Shown here in pieces: positions 3,592-55,939 of a DNA stretch of 64,000 bases. Each line of letters opens with the position of its first letter. Positions within the stretch are counted from its first letter, which is position 1. Source of the stretch: an uncultured Bacilli bacterium. Its GTDB lineage: Bacteria > Bacillota_I > Bacilli_A > RF39 > UBA660. The stretch covers positions 9,885-73,884 of the forward strand of contig CANQST010000002.1 of assembly GCA_947626595.1 (NCBI GenBank). The letters run 5' to 3'. The position numbers were made by a program, and so were the translations under genes. Below the pieces are notes generated by a model. That model was given only the letters and a program-made list of their open reading frames with translations. It had not been told where the DNA came from and did not search any database.

Positions 3592-4314
3592 ATGAGTGGA
3601 CATTCTAAATGGGCAACGATACATCGTAAGAAAGGTTTATTAGATGCCGCAAGGGGTAAAGTTTTTCAAAAGCTTGCGAAGGAAATAATGGTTGCGGCTA
3701 GAGGAGGTAGTCCTGACCCTAGTCAAAATGCAGCACTTAGATTAGTAATTGATAAAGCTAAGGCACAGAATATGCCAAAAGATAATATTCAAAAAGCTAT
3801 TGATAAGGCAACTGGTACAACAGAAGGGGCTAATTATGAGAATGTAAGATATGAGGGCTATGGTCATGGTGGAGTTGCTTTTATGGTTGACTGTTTAACT
3901 GATAATAGAAATAGAACAGCTTCACAAGTAAGAAGTGCTTTTACAAAAGCAGGTGGTAATCTAGGAACTGATGGGTCAGTAAGTTATATGTTTACTAGAA
4001 AAGGTTCTATTGTAATACCAGCTGATTATGACGAAGATACTATTATGATGTGTGTCTTGGATGCGGGAGCCGAAGATTTTGAGAAAGTAGAAAATACTTA
4101 TATAATTACAACACCCCAAGAGGCTTTTGTAGATGTAAAAGATGCTTTAGAAAAGGAAAATGTAAAAGAGTTTTTAGAGTGTGAGTTAACATATGTACCT
4201 ACAATGGAAGTAAGTCTTGACGAAGAAGGTTGTGAAAAAGTTCAGAAATTGGTTGACACTTTGGAAGACTTAGATGATGTTCAAGATGTTTATTATAATT
4301 TAAAAGAAGATTAA
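3592..4314 (+). CDS. yebC: YebC/PmpR family DNA-binding transcriptional regulator
   Basis: MSGHSKWATIHRKKG... is the canonical YebC N-terminus, and the protein is about 240 aa. RBS AGAGGAGGA precedes the ATG at 3592. The track ORF starts 33 nt earlier. Confidence 0.85.
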   Translation: MSGHSKWATIHRKKGLLDAARGKVFQKLAKEIMVAARGGSPDPSQNAALRLVIDKAKAQNMPKDNIQKAIDKATGTTEGANYENVRYEGYGHGGVAFMVDCLTDNRNRTASQVRSAFTKAGGNLGTDGSVSYMFTRKGSIVIPADYDEDTIMMCVLDAGAEDFEKVENTYIITTPQEAFVDVKDALEKENVKEFLECELTYVPTMEVSLDEEGCEKVQKLVDTLEDLDDVQDVYYNLKED

Positions 4315-4336
4315 GGAAAACTAATCTTCTTTTTTG
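4303..4336 (+). terminator. intrinsic terminator after yebC
   Basis: AAGAAGATTA-N8-TAATCTTCTT hairpin followed by TTTTT. Confidence 0.6.
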
Positions 4337-4361
4337 CATAATGAGATTAAATATAGATAGA

Positions 4362-4595
4362 TTAAATTTTTCTTTCTATATTTTTTGTGTTGATTTCTTC
4401 ATTAGTGTTATCATTTTTAAAAATTATTTTAAAGTCGTAAGCATTTGCCAATTTTTCTATTATTTCAAAAGTAGGCTGTATTTTTCCTGTTTCGTATTGT
4501 GATATTGTGTTTTGTGGGATATTAGTTATCTTTGATACATCGCTTTGTTTTAACTGTTTACTTTCTCTCATTACTTTTAATATTTGTCCAATCAT
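4362..4595 (-). CDS. XRE-family helix-turn-helix transcriptional regulator
   Basis: 77 aa. LKQSDVSKITNIPQNTISQYETGKIQP is a Cro/C1-type HTH signature. It is divergent from the surface-protein paralog at 4717. Confidence 0.7.
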   Translation of the reverse strand: MIGQILKVMRESKQLKQSDVSKITNIPQNTISQYETGKIQPTFEIIEKLANAYDFKIIFKNDNTNEEINTKNIERKI

Positions 4596-7393: not shown

Positions 7394-7401
7394 AAACAAA
7401 A

Positions 7402-7431
7402 AATGTTGTAATATTTCATTACAACATTTTT
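7402..7431. terminator. bidirectional terminator
   Basis: ATGTTGTAAT-atttc-ATTACAACAT hairpin followed by TTTT. Confidence 0.55.
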
Positions 7432-8701
7432 ATACTTTTAGAGAACCTATTGGTACAACGTATATTCCATCTTCTCTTTGATATGCATATTCGCCTTTTG
7501 CTGTTAGTATCATTAGAAAAGTTGGATTATTCATTTTTTTAGTATCTATTTTGTCTTTTAATTTTAATAAGTTTTCAGCAGCTTCATTTATTAATTTATC
7601 GCCACCTAGTTTAATTTCAATTAAACCATATTTTCCATCTCTTAAGTGAATAACGGCATCACATTCTAAATCCAAAGCATCTTTGTAGTGATAGACATTA
7701 CCATTTATGGCTTCAGCATAAACTCTTAAATCTCTTATACATAGTGTTTCAAAGATTAGACCAAAAGTGTTTAAATCATTTATTAAATCGTTAGGTCCAA
7801 TTCCTAGTGTTGCCGTTGCGATGGATGGATCAACGAAGTATCTTGTTTCTGATGTTCTTATTGCGGTTTTACTTCTTAGGTTAGGGTTCCAAGCTGGGGC
7901 ATCTTCAATGACAAATAATTTTTTAAGGGCATTTATGTAGGACAATACTGTATCAGCATCTAAAGAAAATAAGTCGTTATTTATCATATCTTTTCTTATT
8001 GTTTCAGTAGAGGCTTGAGTTCCGGTATTTCTGGCATAACTTTTCATTAAATTTTTAACTCGTTCAGGGTTTCTTGTTGTATTATCTACATTTGATGCAT
8101 CTGATTTTATAATACCATAACAATAATCGAATGGTTCTTCTAAAGCAATATCTTTTTCTAGAAAAATACTTCTTGGCCAACCACCTCTACAACAAAGATA
8201 TGCAATATCTTCTAGTGATAGGTTGCTGGTACCTTTTATTTTTGCTTTGTTTTCAAATAAATCAGTAAGACTTACTGTACCAGTTGACTCACCAGACTCA
8301 TATAAACTCATTGGTCTCATAGTTAACCAAGCAAAACGGCCAGTTCCGGTATGTGTCACTTCGTCCATATTGCCTGGAACTGAAGAACCTGTTAATATGA
8401 ATTGCCCTTCTTTTCCACGGTGGTCTACTTCAAATCTTACGGCATCCCATAATTTGGTTGCGATTTGCCACTCGTCAATAAGTCTTGGTGTTTCTCCCTC
8501 TAATAAAATAGAAGGATTTAAATCAGCTAGTATCAGGTTTTGCTCTTTATCTTCAGGCTTACTCATATAAAGAATACTTTTAGAAATTTGTTCAGCTGTT
8601 GTTGTTTTGCCACACCATTTTGGTCCTTGGATTAAAACAGCTCCTTTTCCTTTTAATTTTTTTTCTAATAAACTATCGATAATTCTCTTTCTATATTCCA
8701 T
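7430..8701 (-). CDS. AAA+ ATPase, DUF4143-type (ATP-binding protein)
   Basis: Walker A GPKWCGKTT. PMSLYESGESTG and FVDPSIA are motifs shared with the paralog at 37200. RBS AAGGAGG precedes ATG (complement of 8699-8701). The track ORF begins 51 nt further upstream. Confidence 0.7.
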   Translation of the reverse strand: MEYRKRIIDSLLEKKLKGKGAVLIQGPKWCGKTTTAEQISKSILYMSKPEDKEQNLILADLNPSILLEGETPRLIDEWQIATKLWDAVRFEVDHRGKEGQFILTGSSVPGNMDEVTHTGTGRFAWLTMRPMSLYESGESTGTVSLTDLFENKAKIKGTSNLSLEDIAYLCCRGGWPRSIFLEKDIALEEPFDYCYGIIKSDASNVDNTTRNPERVKNLMKSYARNTGTQASTETIRKDMINNDLFSLDADTVLSYINALKKLFVIEDAPAWNPNLRSKTAIRTSETRYFVDPSIATATLGIGPNDLINDLNTFGLIFETLCIRDLRVYAEAINGNVYHYKDALDLECDAVIHLRDGKYGLIEIKLGGDKLINEAAENLLKLKDKIDTKKMNNPTFLMILTAKGEYAYQREDGIYVVPIGSLKV

Positions 8702-8758
8702 ATAAATGCCTCCTTTTGTTAGAATTATACCATTAATATACATATAAATCAATATATT

Positions 8759-8850
8759 TTCGGTTATTTGTGGAAAAATCGTTCGGTTATTTGTAGAAAT
8801 TTCATTCGGTGATTTGTAGAAAAATTATTCGGTTATTTGTAAATTTTCTA
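8759..8850. repeat. four direct repeats with exact 23-bp phasing (TTCGGTTATTTGTAGAAA core) in the divergent intergenic region
   Basis: Copies start at 8759, 8782, 8805 and 8828. Confidence 0.8.
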
Positions 8851-8930
8851 TACTTGTAATCTTGTAGATAATTAAGTCTTTTTTTCATTTGAAATTTATG
8901 TTATACTTTTATAAGAAAGAAGGATTAAAT

Positions 8931-16382: not shown

Positions 16383-18115
16383 ATGCTTTTCCTTTTTTTA
16401 TAATCTCTGTAGAATTCTCTGCAGGAATGTAGGTGATTGATGTATCTTTATTTTCAGCAACAGATACCATTTTCCCCAAGTGGGGAAAATGGTCTAATAC
16501 GTTGATATTACTACAAATGACAAGAATGCTTTTGACTTTATATCTTTATAAATTAAGGATTTTATTTAAAAATTTTTTAGTTGTTTTATAGATTTGTTTT
16601 ATGATCTCTGCAGAGATATTGTAGAGTTTTGTGCAGTATTTATGAGCATTTGATACAGCCTATCAAATACCATTTTCCCCACTTGGGGAAAATGGTCTAA
16701 TACGTTGGTATTATTACAAATGATAAGAGTGTTTTTGACTTTATGACTTTATAAATTAAGGATTTTATTTAGAAATTTTTTAGTTGTTTTATCAATCTGT
16801 TTTATAATCTCTGCAGAGATGCTGCAGAGTTTTGTGCAGGAATGTAAGCAGTTGATGTATCTTTATTTTCAGCACCAAATACCATTTTTCCGACGTCGGA
16901 AAAATGGTCTAATACGTTGATATTACTACAAATAATAAGAATGCTTTTAACTTTATATCTTTATAAATTAAGAACTATATTTAAGTCCTTTTACTGATTT
17001 AATTTATAGTCTCTGCAGAATTTTCTACAGAAAAATGGAAAACTCTGCAGAGATATTGTAGAGTTTTGAACAGTATTTATGAGCATTTGATGCAGCCTAT
17101 CAAATACCATTTTTCCCAAGTGGGAAAAATGGTCTAATACGTTGATATTACTACAAATTCAGAAATATTCTTGACTTTATATTTTTATGAATTATAAAGC
17201 CTTATTTAAGTTCTTTTATCAATTTGATTTATAGTCTCTACAGAATTCTCTGCAGAGATGCTGCAGAATTTTGTGCAGGAATGTAGGTATTTGATGTATT
17301 TTTATTTTTAGCAACAGATACCATTTTGCCGACGTCGGAAAAATGGTCTAATGCGTTGATATTACTACAAATTCAGAAATATTCTTGATTTTATATTTTT
17401 ATAAATTATAAAGCCTTATTTAAGTTTTTTTATCAATTTTATTTATAATTTCTGCAGAATTCTCTGCAAAGATGCTGCAGAATTTTGTGCAGGAATGTAG
17501 GTATTTGATGTATCTTTATTTTTAGAAGCAAATACCATTTTCCCCACTTGGGGAAAATGGTCTAATATGTTGATATTACTAAAAATAATAAGAATGCTTT
17601 TTACTTTATATCTTTATGAATTAAGAACCATATTTAAGGTCTTTTACTACTTTAATTTATAGTTTCTGCAGAAGAACTGTTAAACTCTGTAGAGATACTG
17701 CAAAGTTTTGTGCGGTAATATAAGTATTTGATGTATCTTTATTTTTAGAAGTAAATACCATTTTTCCGACGTCGGAAAAATGGTCTAATACATTGATATT
17801 ACTACAAATAATAAGAATGCTTTTGACTTTATATCTTTATAAATTAAGGATTTTTATTTATAAATTTTTTAATTGTTTTATAGAGTTGTTTTATGATTTT
17901 TGCATAATTCTCTGCAAAAAATGGAAAACTCTGCAGAGATACTGCAGAGCTTTGTGCAGTAATGTAGGTATTTGATGTATCTTTATTTTAGAAATAAATA
18001 CCATTTTTCCGACGTCGGCAAAATGGTCTAATACGTTGATATTACTATAAATTCAAGAATATTATTTGGTTTATACTTTTATAAATTATGAAAATTTCTT
18101 TAAGACTTTTTTAGT
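16383..18115. repeat. tandem array of 8 repeat units of roughly 203-233 bp, each containing a 26-bp perfect palindrome
   Basis: Palindromes start at 16466, 16669, 16881, 17106, 17320, 17534, 17767 and 18000. Every unit also contains TCTAATACGTTGATATTACTACAAAT, TTGACTTTATATCTTTATAAATTA-like and CTCTGCAGAG....CTGCAGAG segments. Confidence 0.9.
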
Positions 18116-36856: not shown

Positions 36857-37018
36857 ATGAAGAAAGGTACAATGATGGCCATGTTATTAGGGGGATTAGG
36901 AGTTATCGGTTATATGTATATGCAGAAAAATCCAGAAGCAAAGCAAAATGTGCGTAATATGGCTAAAAGTGCTGTGAAGAAGGCTTATAATAAACTAGAT
37001 GATATGGAAGAGGCTTAG
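36857..37018 (+). CDS. small membrane protein (53 aa), hypothetical
   Basis: Absent from the ORF track. RBS GAGGTGA, ATG 36857, MKKGTMMAMLLGGLGVIGYMYMQK... (one TM helix followed by a basic tail). Confidence 0.3.
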   Translation: MKKGTMMAMLLGGLGVIGYMYMQKNPEAKQNVRNMAKSAVKKAYNKLDDMEEA

Positions 37019-37040
37019 GCCTTTTTCTTTTCTCATAAAT

Positions 37041-37132
37041 TTAAAATTTGTATATTAAAAAGCTTAAAAATTGTATATCAAAAGTCTTAAAAAATGTATA
37101 TTAAAATCCTTAAAATTTGTATATTGATATTG
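37041..37132. repeat. four direct repeats with exact 23-bp phasing (TTAAAATTTGTATAT core) upstream of the second DUF4143 ATPase
   Basis: Copies start at 37041, 37064, 37087 and 37110. Confidence 0.8.
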
Positions 37133-37199
37133 AAAAATTACTATAAATATGGTATTATTTTATTGGTGATGATTAGTGAATTTTAATGAAAAGGAATAT

Positions 37200-38450
37200 A
37201 TGCCTAGGTTAATTGATAAAAACATAGATAGATATTTAGAAGTTTTTGGAGCTGTTTCTGTTGAGGGACCAAAATGGTGTGGTAAGACTTGGGCATCTTT
37301 GAGGCACGCTAAAAGTGTTGCTTATTTGGATGATGAAAGTACTAAACAAAGAGCTTTATTAGATTTGGAATTGATTTTAAATGATCAACAACCAGAACTT
37401 ATTGATGAGTGGCATTTAATTCCGGAAATTTGGGATAGAGTTAGAAGAAAGTGTGATTTAGATAGTAAAAAAGGAAAATATATTTTGACTTGTTCTACGC
37501 AACTTGATGATGAAAGAAGAAAACACATTTATCATTCTGGTGCTGGTAGAATTGGTAAACTTAAAATGTATCCTATGAGTTTGTATGAGTCTGGTGAGTC
37601 TACAGGAGATGCATCTTTGATGGATATGTTTAATGGTAAACAAAAAAATAAAAATGTTAAAATTCCTAGTTTAGAAGAAATAGCTAATTTAATAGTAAGA
37701 GGTGGATGGCCTGATAATATTAAAGTTTCTAAAGATAAAATCAATATAATTCCCAAGAGTTATATTGCCTCAGTCCTTGATAAAGATATTGATGATGGTA
37801 AAAAACGTGATAAAGAAAAAATGAATATGCTTATTAAATCACTCGCACGTAATGAGTCTACCATTGTTAGTAATCAGACGTTATTAACTGATATAGGTAC
37901 TTATAATAATAACGAAGAATTAATAGAAAGCAGAGTAACACTAAGTGATTATTTAGATGTTTTAGATAGACTTCACTTTACTGAAAATCAAAGTGCTTAT
38001 AGTGAGAATTATCGTTCAAGAGAAAGACTTGGCAAAACACCTAAAAGACATTTAATAGACCCATCTTTAGCTTGTGCCGCTTTAAATTTAACTAGTGATA
38101 AATTACTTAGTGATTTGAGAACTTTTGGTTTCTTGTTTGAGTCTTTAGTAGAAAGAGATTTAAGAATTTATATAGAATATTTAGATGGAAATATTTATCA
38201 TTTTAGAGATAATGTAAGTGGATTAGAAGTTGATAGTATACTGGAATTTCCGGGAGGAGATTATGCCGCAGTTGAAATAAAGTTAGGTTTTAACGCTATT
38301 GAAGAAGCTAAGGCTAATTTAGTAAAGTTTGCGAGTAATATGACTAAAAAACCTAAATTTATGTGTATTATTACTGGTAATTTTGATGCTGTAGCAAAAG
38401 ATCCAGATACGGGAATATATATTGTTCCTATAACAGCTTTAAAACCATAG
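37200..38450 (+). CDS. AAA+ ATPase, DUF4143-type (paralog of 7430-8701)
   Basis: GPKWCGKTW Walker A. PMSLYESGESTG and IDPSLA are shared with the other copy. Confidence 0.7.
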   Translation: MPRLIDKNIDRYLEVFGAVSVEGPKWCGKTWASLRHAKSVAYLDDESTKQRALLDLELILNDQQPELIDEWHLIPEIWDRVRRKCDLDSKKGKYILTCSTQLDDERRKHIYHSGAGRIGKLKMYPMSLYESGESTGDASLMDMFNGKQKNKNVKIPSLEEIANLIVRGGWPDNIKVSKDKINIIPKSYIASVLDKDIDDGKKRDKEKMNMLIKSLARNESTIVSNQTLLTDIGTYNNNEELIESRVTLSDYLDVLDRLHFTENQSAYSENYRSRERLGKTPKRHLIDPSLACAALNLTSDKLLSDLRTFGFLFESLVERDLRIYIEYLDGNIYHFRDNVSGLEVDSILEFPGGDYAAVEIKLGFNAIEEAKANLVKFASNMTKKPKFMCIITGNFDAVAKDPDTGIYIVPITALKP

Positions 38451-38577
38451 ATTAAGCCAAAAGGCTTTTTTTTCATGTTTATGTGGCTTTTTGCTTGTCA
38501 AATTAAGTCAAGCAAAGTTGAAAAATAAAAATATTTCCCTTATAATAAGTAGTAGTGAGATTAGGAGTGAAGTTAAT

Positions 38578-55864: not shown

Positions 55865-55939
55865 TGCCCTATAGCCAAGTGGTAAGGCAGTGCGCTCTGA
55901 CCGCATTACGCGTTAGTTCGAATCTAACTAGGGCAACCA
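55865..55939 (+). tRNA. tRNA-Gln (anticodon CUG)
   Basis: Hand-folded cloverleaf. Acceptor TGCCCTA/TAGGGCA (U1-A72), D-stem GCC/GGC, anticodon stem GTGCG/CGCAT, loop CT-CTG-AC, variable loop TACGC, T-arm GTTAG-TTCGAAT-CTAAC, discriminator A, CCA encoded. Confidence 0.8.

Follow-up and report, generated by a model that had tools for sequence, protein, structure and literature searches.

The 64-kb window considered here (the whole stretch of DNA that was analysed, 64,000 nucleotides of contig CANQST010000002.1 from an uncultured Bacilli bacterium) contains two paralogous genes for DUF4143 ATPase-nucleases, each of which is preceded by four direct repeats with a 23-bp period. Paralogue 1 lies on the minus strand (7430–8701; translation of 423 amino acids) and paralogue 2 on the plus strand (37176–38450), where translation from the GTG at 37176 gives 424 amino acids and from the ATG at 37200 gives 416. 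The GTG is the more likely start, because the N-termini of homologues read MNFN.DEYMPRLID. The original prediction had described two paralogues of about 420 amino acids with a P-loop (GPKWCGKT) and further blocks in common (PMSLYESGESTG and DPS(I/L)A), and this description was borne out: the two proteins share these blocks and are 39% identical across their full length. Both exceeded the Pfam gathering cut-offs for AAA_14 (27) and DUF4143 (28.1), with the domains in that order, at 58.0 bits (1.3e-15) and 102.5 bits (2.5e-29) for paralogue 1, and 43.8 and 103.0 bits for paralogue 2. Both also matched the PADLOC PDC-S01 model PDLC04790 over its full length (6.1e-59 for paralogue 1 and 2.5e-58 for paralogue 2). 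An NCBIfam search with the window proteins returned no match.

Array 1 (8759–8850, minus strand) consists of four 23-bp units with plus-strand starts at 8759, 8782, 8805 and 8828, and array 2 (37041–37132, plus strand) of four units starting at 37041, 37064, 37087 and 37110, exactly where they had been placed before this analysis. Both were found by repeat search and by Tandem Repeats Finder (TRF; scores of 124 and 114, respectively), and were the sole period-23 arrays among the 92 TRF rows for the window. On the plus strand, array 1 units read TTCGGT(T/G)ATTTGT(G/A)(G/A)AA..., and in gene orientation TCTACAAATAACCGAAnnAnnTT, with a core of T(C/T)(T/C)ACAAAT(A/C)ACCGAA followed by an A/T spacer of 8–9 nt. 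Further upstream, at about 8860–8868, there is a degenerate partial unit (TCTACAAG). Array 2 units in gene orientation read TTAAAAWWTGTATATYAAAAnnn. Comparison of the sequence with the logo of related arrays points to a degenerate fifth unit of array 2 (TTGAAAAATTACTATAAATATGG; 37131–37153, plus strand), offset by 21 nt from unit 4.

Promoter-like sites were found at the downstream end of both arrays, each with 10 of 12 consensus matches and an extended -10 element. That of paralogue 1 (TTGATT-17-TGnTATAAT; 8724–8752, minus strand) starts 6 nt past the last repeat core. That of paralogue 2 (TTGAAA-17-TGnTATTAT; 37130–37158, plus strand) overlaps the end of unit 4, and its -35 hexamer and spacer are spanned by the degenerate fifth unit. 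When the window was scanned for the array 1 core (ACAAATAACCGAA) with 0–1 mismatches, it occurred at its four array positions only, as did the array 2 core (TTAAAAWWTGTATAT) with no mismatches; weaker matches elsewhere in the window were at the level expected by chance, based on shuffled controls. At two junctions in or beside array 1 (8769–8777 and 8863–8871, minus strand), the sequences TTTTCCACA and TTATCTACA each differ by one mismatch from the DnaA box TTATCCACA. DnaA-box-like matches were not enriched across the window (21 found versus 22 expected).

We assessed how widely such arrays accompany homologous genes using three sets of loci: 80 genome loci related to paralogue 1 (60–77% amino-acid identity), 80 metagenome loci related to paralogue 2 (45–68% identity) and, as an independent replicate, 30 viral-contig loci from IMG/VR. 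Controls were 400-bp tiles cut from the same fetched loci. The first set covers Clostridia, Bacilli, Bacteroidota, Spirochaetota, Fibrobacterota, Verrucomicrobiota and Lentisphaerota, and the genomes with the nearest homologues are metagenome-assembled genomes (MAGs) of uncultured gut Clostridia and Bacilli. A TRF array with a period of 23 (or 46/69, rarely 22–24) was present in 127 of 156 upstream regions versus 4 of 1,897 control tiles, an enrichment of roughly 400-fold, and the four control-tile matches were themselves additional arrays of the same kind. Independently of TRF, self-similarity was highest at a lag of 23 in 144 of 153 upstream regions, and the best lags of 1,894 control tiles were scattered over coding periodicities. 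The replicate set gave the same picture (lag 23 best in 24 of 26 IMG/VR loci). Arrays at about 94% of 153 loci, as against about 0.2% of control tiles, agree with the original judgement that these are not chance AT-rich repeats; arrays were also found in G+C-rich hosts.

Geometry was conserved as well. Consecutive cores were spaced by exactly 23 bp in 294 of 323 cases (and by 46 bp in seven), the orientation of the array relative to the gene was constant in 115 of 118 arrays, and the distance from the end of the array to the start codon had a median of 68 nt. Copy number differed between close relatives (median 3.5, range 2–11, with one locus at about 20). At that last locus (L133, positions 2328–2782), some 20 successive 23-bp units (AGAAAAGTGCTCAAC...) stand upstream of the gene. 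Cognate cores were rare elsewhere in the fetched homologous loci.

Each unit is built from a core of about 14 bp, containing invariant anchors and locus-specific positions, and a spacer of 8–9 bp. Among copies within one array, unit positions 2–15 were 85–100% identical and positions 16–23 were 54–81% identical. Between arrays of different loci, positions 3–5, 13 and 17 were near-universal, and positions 6–12 and 15 varied. The core is thus kept, and the spacer is free in sequence but fixed in length, implying purifying selection on a protein-binding site and its spacing as opposed to recent duplication. The coding strand of the units is rich in A (45%), and every spacer has an A-tract. In gene orientation, the clade-1 logo reads G-C-C-A-A-(A)-(T)-n-n-C-(C/G)-G-A-A-n-(A/G)-A-A-A-n-n-n-n and the clade-2 logo T-T-(A/G)-A-A-A-A-n-T-G-(T/C)-A-(C/T)-A-n-T-A-A-A-A-n-n-n. 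Array 1 agrees with the former (GCCAAATnnCCGAAnAAA) and array 2 with the latter (TT(A/G)AAAAnTG(T/C)A(C/T)AnTAAAA).

The motif ATTTGTA(G/T)A, previously proposed as common to both arrays, does occur literally on the plus strand of each. It is not a homologous element, however, because the two genes lie on opposite strands and the motif is therefore inverted relative to them. As a shared core it was rejected: the logos place both arrays the same way round relative to their genes and in a different register, and intermediate clades (e.g., TCAAAATATCACGGAAT) link the two logos in that one orientation, so that the resemblance is coincidental.

The limits of sequence conservation define the array and the gene as one unit. 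Where cassettes with 80–99% nucleotide identity were found in unrelated contexts, homology extended only from about -100/-220 to +2/+170 of the gene. This stretch comprises array, promoter and gene, and no second open reading frame (ORF) was conserved family-wide. Flanking genes were housekeeping genes that differed from locus to locus. Judged from these sequence comparisons, the cassette has clearly moved horizontally across phyla. As the ATPase is the only protein co-transferred with the array, the array binder is probably the ATPase itself and not an unseen partner, which favours the first of two options that had been put forward for the cognate protein.

Several loci were unusual in their arrangement. 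Cassettes of 95–99% identity occurred in different contexts in one subclade (L135–L143), where similarity extended from about -220 to +310 around the gene; their ends were ragged and nested, and no defined termini were found. One of them (L140) sits directly behind the 3' end of a tRNA gene, and this subclade has a conserved small ORF (MSKLIHFKYDKYVEVEGDKISL...) downstream of the ATPase gene. In a Bacteroidales MAG (L077), arrays of the same type and orientation were present upstream of the gene (2821–2928, about five units) and directly after its stop codon (4290–4375, about four units), placing the gene between direct copies of its array. A Hallerella sp. MAG (L060) contains two divergent DUF4143 paralogues and arrays at 960–1005, 2483–2579, 2874–2960 and 4318–4414. 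Each paralogue there has its own upstream array and a partial copy of the other's array just past its 3' end, and a 97-bp B-type array stands on both sides of a 1.74-kb segment holding a small ORF, array A and gene A. Terminal inverted repeats and target-site duplications were sought around the window cassettes, and only chance-level 11-nt matches were recovered (7430/8901).

Protein architecture was predicted with AlphaFold2 from an alignment of 70 diverse homologues (predicted local distance difference test score, pLDDT, 96.5; predicted template modelling score, pTM, 0.94). This replaced a shallower 25-sequence model with a poor N-terminal half (pLDDT 67). In the model of paralogue 1, an AAA+ alpha/beta core (residues 1 to about 175) is followed by a helical lid, a winged helix (about 210–292) and a PD-(D/E)XK domain, the fold class to which DUF4143 has been assigned (PMC3424549). 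Walker A (GPKWCGKT, G26–T33) and Walker B (LIDEW, D76–E77) are both intact: G26, G31, K32 and E77 were invariant among the 70 homologues, and T33 and D76 at least 90% conserved. The modelled winged helix presents a recognition helix (249–261) and a conserved basic wing (LRSK...R..PKR). The predicted nuclease core comprises E318, D348 and E362-I-K364, of which E318, D348, E362 and K364 were invariant in the 25-sequence alignment; E318 and D348 were at least 90% conserved in the 70-sequence alignment.

Foldseek searches of the PDB returned an archaeal AAA+ ATPase as the best match (2fna, E 1.3e-6, template modelling (TM) score 0.40–0.47). Other matches were plant NLR (nucleotide-binding leucine-rich repeat) NB-ARC domains, Orc1/Cdc6 on origin DNA (2qby), ORC, RFC, MalT (8bob), an Avs STAND protein (signal transduction ATPase with numerous domains) and DnaA (1l8q). 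For Orc1/Cdc6 and DnaA, similarity of fold was significant but partial (E 5.6e-5 and TM of about 0.23 for 2qby; E 1.6e-3 for 1l8q). The winged-helix segment matched regulators of the PerR, PadR and ArsR type with winged helix-turn-helix domains. Sequence and profile searches of the PDB found no relative past the P-loop.

Array divergence follows protein divergence. Mantel correlations between array and protein distances were 0.18 (clade 1) and 0.48 (clade 2) for the AAA+ domain, 0.42 and 0.62 for the winged helix, and 0.31 and 0.67 for the nuclease domain. Within clade 1, 12 of the top 30 protein columns covarying with unit positions fell in the winged helix, which contributed 51 of the 259 columns tested; among them are positions 248, 250 and 253, where the recognition helix is predicted. 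This covariation is only suggestive of a winged helix that reads the cores. Together, selection on core and spacer, rigid spacing, and co-divergence of array and protein support the idea, raised in the original prediction, of co-evolved iteron-like arrays for a cognate DNA-binding protein.

Absence of such repeats from other DUF4143 loci had been named as the finding that would speak against that idea; they were present, including in the viral-contig set and in relatives of only 24–32% identity. Sixteen plasmid-borne homologues were inspected for upstream repeats. Three 23-bp repeats were found for a Bacteroides ovatus plasmid copy (63% identity), a Prosthecochloris homologue (32% identity) and an Asticcacaulis homologue that matched less well (about 24% identity across part of its sequence). 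Homologues with 24–27% identity from Novosphingobium, Tateyamaria, Salipiger, Sulfitobacter, Sinorhizobium, Agrobacterium and Phyllobacterium had three or four direct repeats of 22 bp. The array of the Bacteroides plasmid copy stops just upstream of a TAnnTTTG -7 box, and in Salipiger, Tateyamaria and Sulfitobacter a TTGACT-16-TACTTT promoter match (by consensus only) falls within the last two 22-bp units. In the L135–L143 subclade, the TTGAAA of the last repeat would serve as the -35 element, with TAGAAT following after 17 nt (again by consensus only).

Plasmid homologues from Thermus (L165), Meiothermus (L172) and Dinoroseobacter (L175) are shorter, at about 388 amino acids, and had no direct repeats within the upstream region examined. 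Those of Meiothermus and Dinoroseobacter have an inverted repeat, CCTTGC(N about 22)GCAAGG, across the start codon, and that of Thermus a partial match to it; the inverted repeats of these three loci are placed in the last 40 nt ahead of the start codon. Other palindromes occupy the corresponding place in Treponema succinifaciens (L167) and Azotobacter (L168). From these sequences, genes for DUF4143 ATPases in general appear to have an operator-like element at their own promoter, and the form with 22–23-bp direct repeats is widespread among them.

Given these patterns, we consider it probable that the arrays are self-encoded operators and assembly sites bound by the ATPase whose gene they precede, and that this ATPase probably represses its own expression. 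Each locus would be a self-contained single-gene cassette, consisting of a 23-bp array, a promoter and a gene for an AAA+/winged-helix/PD-(D/E)XK protein. The C-terminal half of one protomer (the winged helix and possibly the nuclease domain too) would read each core of about 14 bp, and the rigid, head-to-tail 23-bp step would allow adjacent protomers to touch via their AAA+ modules. We infer that the protein would in this way assemble cooperatively, and in a nucleotide- (ATP-) dependent manner, on its own upstream region, and that the oligomer, sitting on or against the -35 element, would set the expression of its own gene. Autoregulation is the simplest outcome given that the array ends at or over the -35 element and that arrays of distant relatives contain both the -35 and the -10 elements. 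Repression is its most likely direction because the promoter lies within the array in several clades, and it would keep expression of a potentially toxic nuclease low and at a set level. The distinct cores of the two window paralogues would imply that they are insulated from each other.

A number of observations weigh against this explanation. The promoters at both loci are consensus matches alone, and the clade 1 array abuts the -35 element without covering it, an arrangement equally compatible with activation. Since 23 bp corresponds to about 2.2 helical turns, successive sites would lie off the same face of straight B-DNA. Copy numbers of 2 to about 20 exceed the needs of a simple operator, and the extra arrays past the gene 3' ends in the Hallerella and Bacteroidales MAGs are unexplained by autoregulation alone. 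Phylogeny also confounds the covariation signal: in clade 2 it dominates, column covariation showed no enrichment in the winged helix, and the nuclease domain correlates with the array at least as well as the winged helix does.

Some of these observations would be accommodated if the array were a nucleation track for an ORC- or DnaA-like filament as well as a recombination or landing site by which cassettes enter beside or within each other, and the cassette an autonomous selfish or defence module. The 23-bp step would then give a rotation of about 69 degrees per protomer, near a hexameric pitch, and this arrangement would account for the reciprocal arrays of L060, the flanked gene of L077 and arrays of up to about 20 copies. 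We regard it as unlikely from the evidence at hand. If true, the cassette would represent a new class of mobile element, minimal, single-gene and self-targeting, and PDC-S01 would be no conventional defence gene.

Similarly doubtful is an account in which the arrays are cis-acting sites for mobility or recombination of the cassette (places of integration or excision, or hot spots for its own nuclease or a recombinase supplied in trans), with the promoter-proximal position being secondary. It draws on 60–77% amino-acid identity across Clostridia, Bacilli, Bacteroidota, Spirochaetota, Fibrobacterota and Verrucomicrobiota, on cassettes with 95–99% identity in unrelated contexts, on the gene between direct same-type arrays in L077 and the reciprocal array duplications in L060, on copy numbers that vary among close relatives, and on an intact PD-(D/E)XK motif. 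However, flanking arrays occurred in just 2 of about 160 loci, and the breakpoints of cassette homology were ragged, usually lying 20–100 bp outside the array and not at its edge. Nor were the window cassettes bounded by terminal inverted repeats or by significant target duplications, and a recombination site does not require a fixed orientation, a set distance to the start codon or overlap with a promoter.

Less probable still is that a host factor binds the arrays, or that they act without any protein as upstream elements (phased A-tracts or curvature) that boost transcription of a newly arrived gene. The A-rich coding strand with its A-tract per spacer, and the placement of arrays where UP elements and upstream activator sites lie, are in keeping with this. 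Yet the best-kept positions are those of the core, outside the A-tract, and the core changes in step with the protein. The arrays also accompany the gene into phyla whose transcription machineries differ, a 23-bp step is out of helical phase for additive curvature, and two paralogues in one genome hold different cores.

It is very unlikely that the arrays are origin- or partition-like iterons and the protein an Orc1/Cdc6- or DnaA-like initiator, or a centromere binder, of an excised cassette or mobile element. Resemblance of the fold to Orc1/Cdc6, ORC and DnaA would fit such a role, as would phased direct repeats of about 22–23 bp beside the gene of their binder, the classic layout of iteron/Rep and ORB/cdc6 systems, and the presence of the family on plasmids and some viral contigs. 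On the other hand, the window cassettes are chromosomal, stand amid housekeeping genes and occur twice within 64 kb; DnaA-box-like matches are at chance level; the conserved unit of 1.5 kb contains no other replication or partition gene; and the arrays are tied to a promoter in every clade examined. Non-functional tandem duplication or chance in an AT-rich window, for which TRF does list many short, low-scoring repeats, is scarcely credible in view of the enrichment over control tiles, the exact spacing, the difference in conservation between core and spacer, and the arrays in G+C-rich hosts and at 24–32% protein identity.

The proposed self-operator nonetheless has parallels in known systems. 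Orc1/Cdc6, DnaA and MalT assemble on direct repeats. As in Orc1/Cdc6 with its ORB elements and in DnaA with its boxes (including dnaA autoregulation), the DUF4143 protein is predicted to combine an AAA+ module and lid with a following DNA-binding (winged-)helix domain, repeated putative cognate sites stand beside its own gene, and head-to-tail assembly would be expected. In contrast to those systems, the loci studied here gave no evidence of an origin, the protein has an additional C-terminal PD-(D/E)XK nuclease, units follow one another in strict tandem every 23 bp, and the gene is part of a single-gene cassette that moves horizontally. Plasmid iterons (pSC101, P1, F, R6K and RK2), which are bound by Rep proteins, consist of at least three direct repeats with a conserved core, a variable spacer and 22–23-bp phasing, close to two helical turns; they lie beside the gene of their binder, are replicon-specific and are involved in autoregulation. 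DUF4143 arrays likewise are direct repeats phased at about 22–23 bp beside a putative binder gene, but the putative binder is an AAA+ ATPase-nuclease instead of a winged-helix Rep protein, and the arrays are chromosomal, promoter-proximal and not enriched in DnaA boxes; no AT-rich unwinding region was noted at them, though no search was aimed at one.

MalT, among the STAND proteins, offers an oligomerising, ATP-dependent NTPase whose DNA-binding domain reads direct repeats upstream of a sigma-70 promoter. MalT differs in activating other operons through boxes read by a LuxR-type helix-turn-helix; putative cognate sites of the DUF4143 protein were found only at its own promoter, and it has a nuclease effector domain. 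The best structural match, SSO1545 (2fna, Arch_ATPase), is likewise an AAA+ module with a winged helix, although no sequence relationship to the DUF4143 protein was detected. With origin features absent, a different protein family and a nuclease present, the window loci are not members of the iteron/Rep, ORB, DnaA-box or MalT systems.

Membership is clear for PDC-S01 (AAA_14 plus DUF4143, COG1373), as the window proteins match both its model and its ATPase/PD-(D/E)XK composition. PDC-S01 has been described as an ATPase fused to a PD-(D/E)XK domain, with validation pending for most PDCs (PMC12988326). It is reported to rank fourth among defence candidates in prokaryotes by frequency and to be, in rumen microbiomes, the single locus that occurs most often (PMC12988326, PMC13356809). 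The literature portrays it as an unvalidated, extremely abundant gene that is exchanged between the domains of life. About 39,000 PDC-S01 loci are reported. Our homologue family comprised 8,700 clusters at 50% identity (E ≤ 1e-3). In literature on DUF4143, COG1373, PDC-S01, 23-bp repeats and AAA+/winged-helix/direct-repeat combinations, we found no mention of upstream repeats, and the array is thus new information on the PDC-S01 family.

A conserved, clade-specific DNA site provides a first concrete molecular handle on the AAA_14/DUF4143 family. It predicts the DNA target of the protein and the domain that would read it, regulation or assembly at the protein's own promoter, and insulation of paralogues through the core sequence. 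Provided that binding occurs as proposed, arrays and proteins would form a natural set of orthogonal protein–DNA pairs with fixed geometry. Genome surveys that class PDC-S01 loci as "defence" may in fact be recording a cassette that regulates itself and moves horizontally.

In the window, the genes surrounding the cassettes encode housekeeping functions, including an HD-domain protein, a CBS-DRTGG pyrophosphatase, RecD2 and a GyrB/ParE-type topoisomerase subunit. Both cassettes are chromosomal, and their setting is not that of a defence island. An island of that kind was seen on a Sulfitobacter plasmid (L164, 2715–4050), where a restriction endonuclease gene and qatA, part of the Qat anti-phage system, come after the DUF4143 gene. 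Repeat search identified a perfect 14-bp inverted repeat (AAAAATGTTGTAAT / ATTACAACATTTTT; 7399–7431) where the 3' end of paralogue 1 faces that of the convergent HD-domain gene, which from its sequence and position is likely a bidirectional terminator and cassette boundary; it received no score in a G+C-dependent terminator scan. That scan placed a terminator-like hairpin of the preceding 56-amino-acid ORF at 37006–37027 (plus strand), and another, a putative cassette boundary, right after paralogue 2 (38454–38467, plus strand). The former separates array 2 from the upstream gene, and array 2 is therefore probably not transcribed from upstream. Layout differs from that of clustered regularly interspaced short palindromic repeats (CRISPR), as array units are contiguous, have no unique spacers and lie between terminator and promoter.

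An Rfam scan of the window found no RNA family at either array; its sole match at the gathering threshold was one tRNA gene (55865–55936). Elsewhere in the window, a 214-bp tandem repeat of about 7.7 copies (16407–18089; TRF score of about 1200, 76–78% matches) lies in a 1.7-kb stretch without an ORF of at least 100 amino acids, and its unit holds a hairpin (CCATTTTTCC...GGAAAAATGG).

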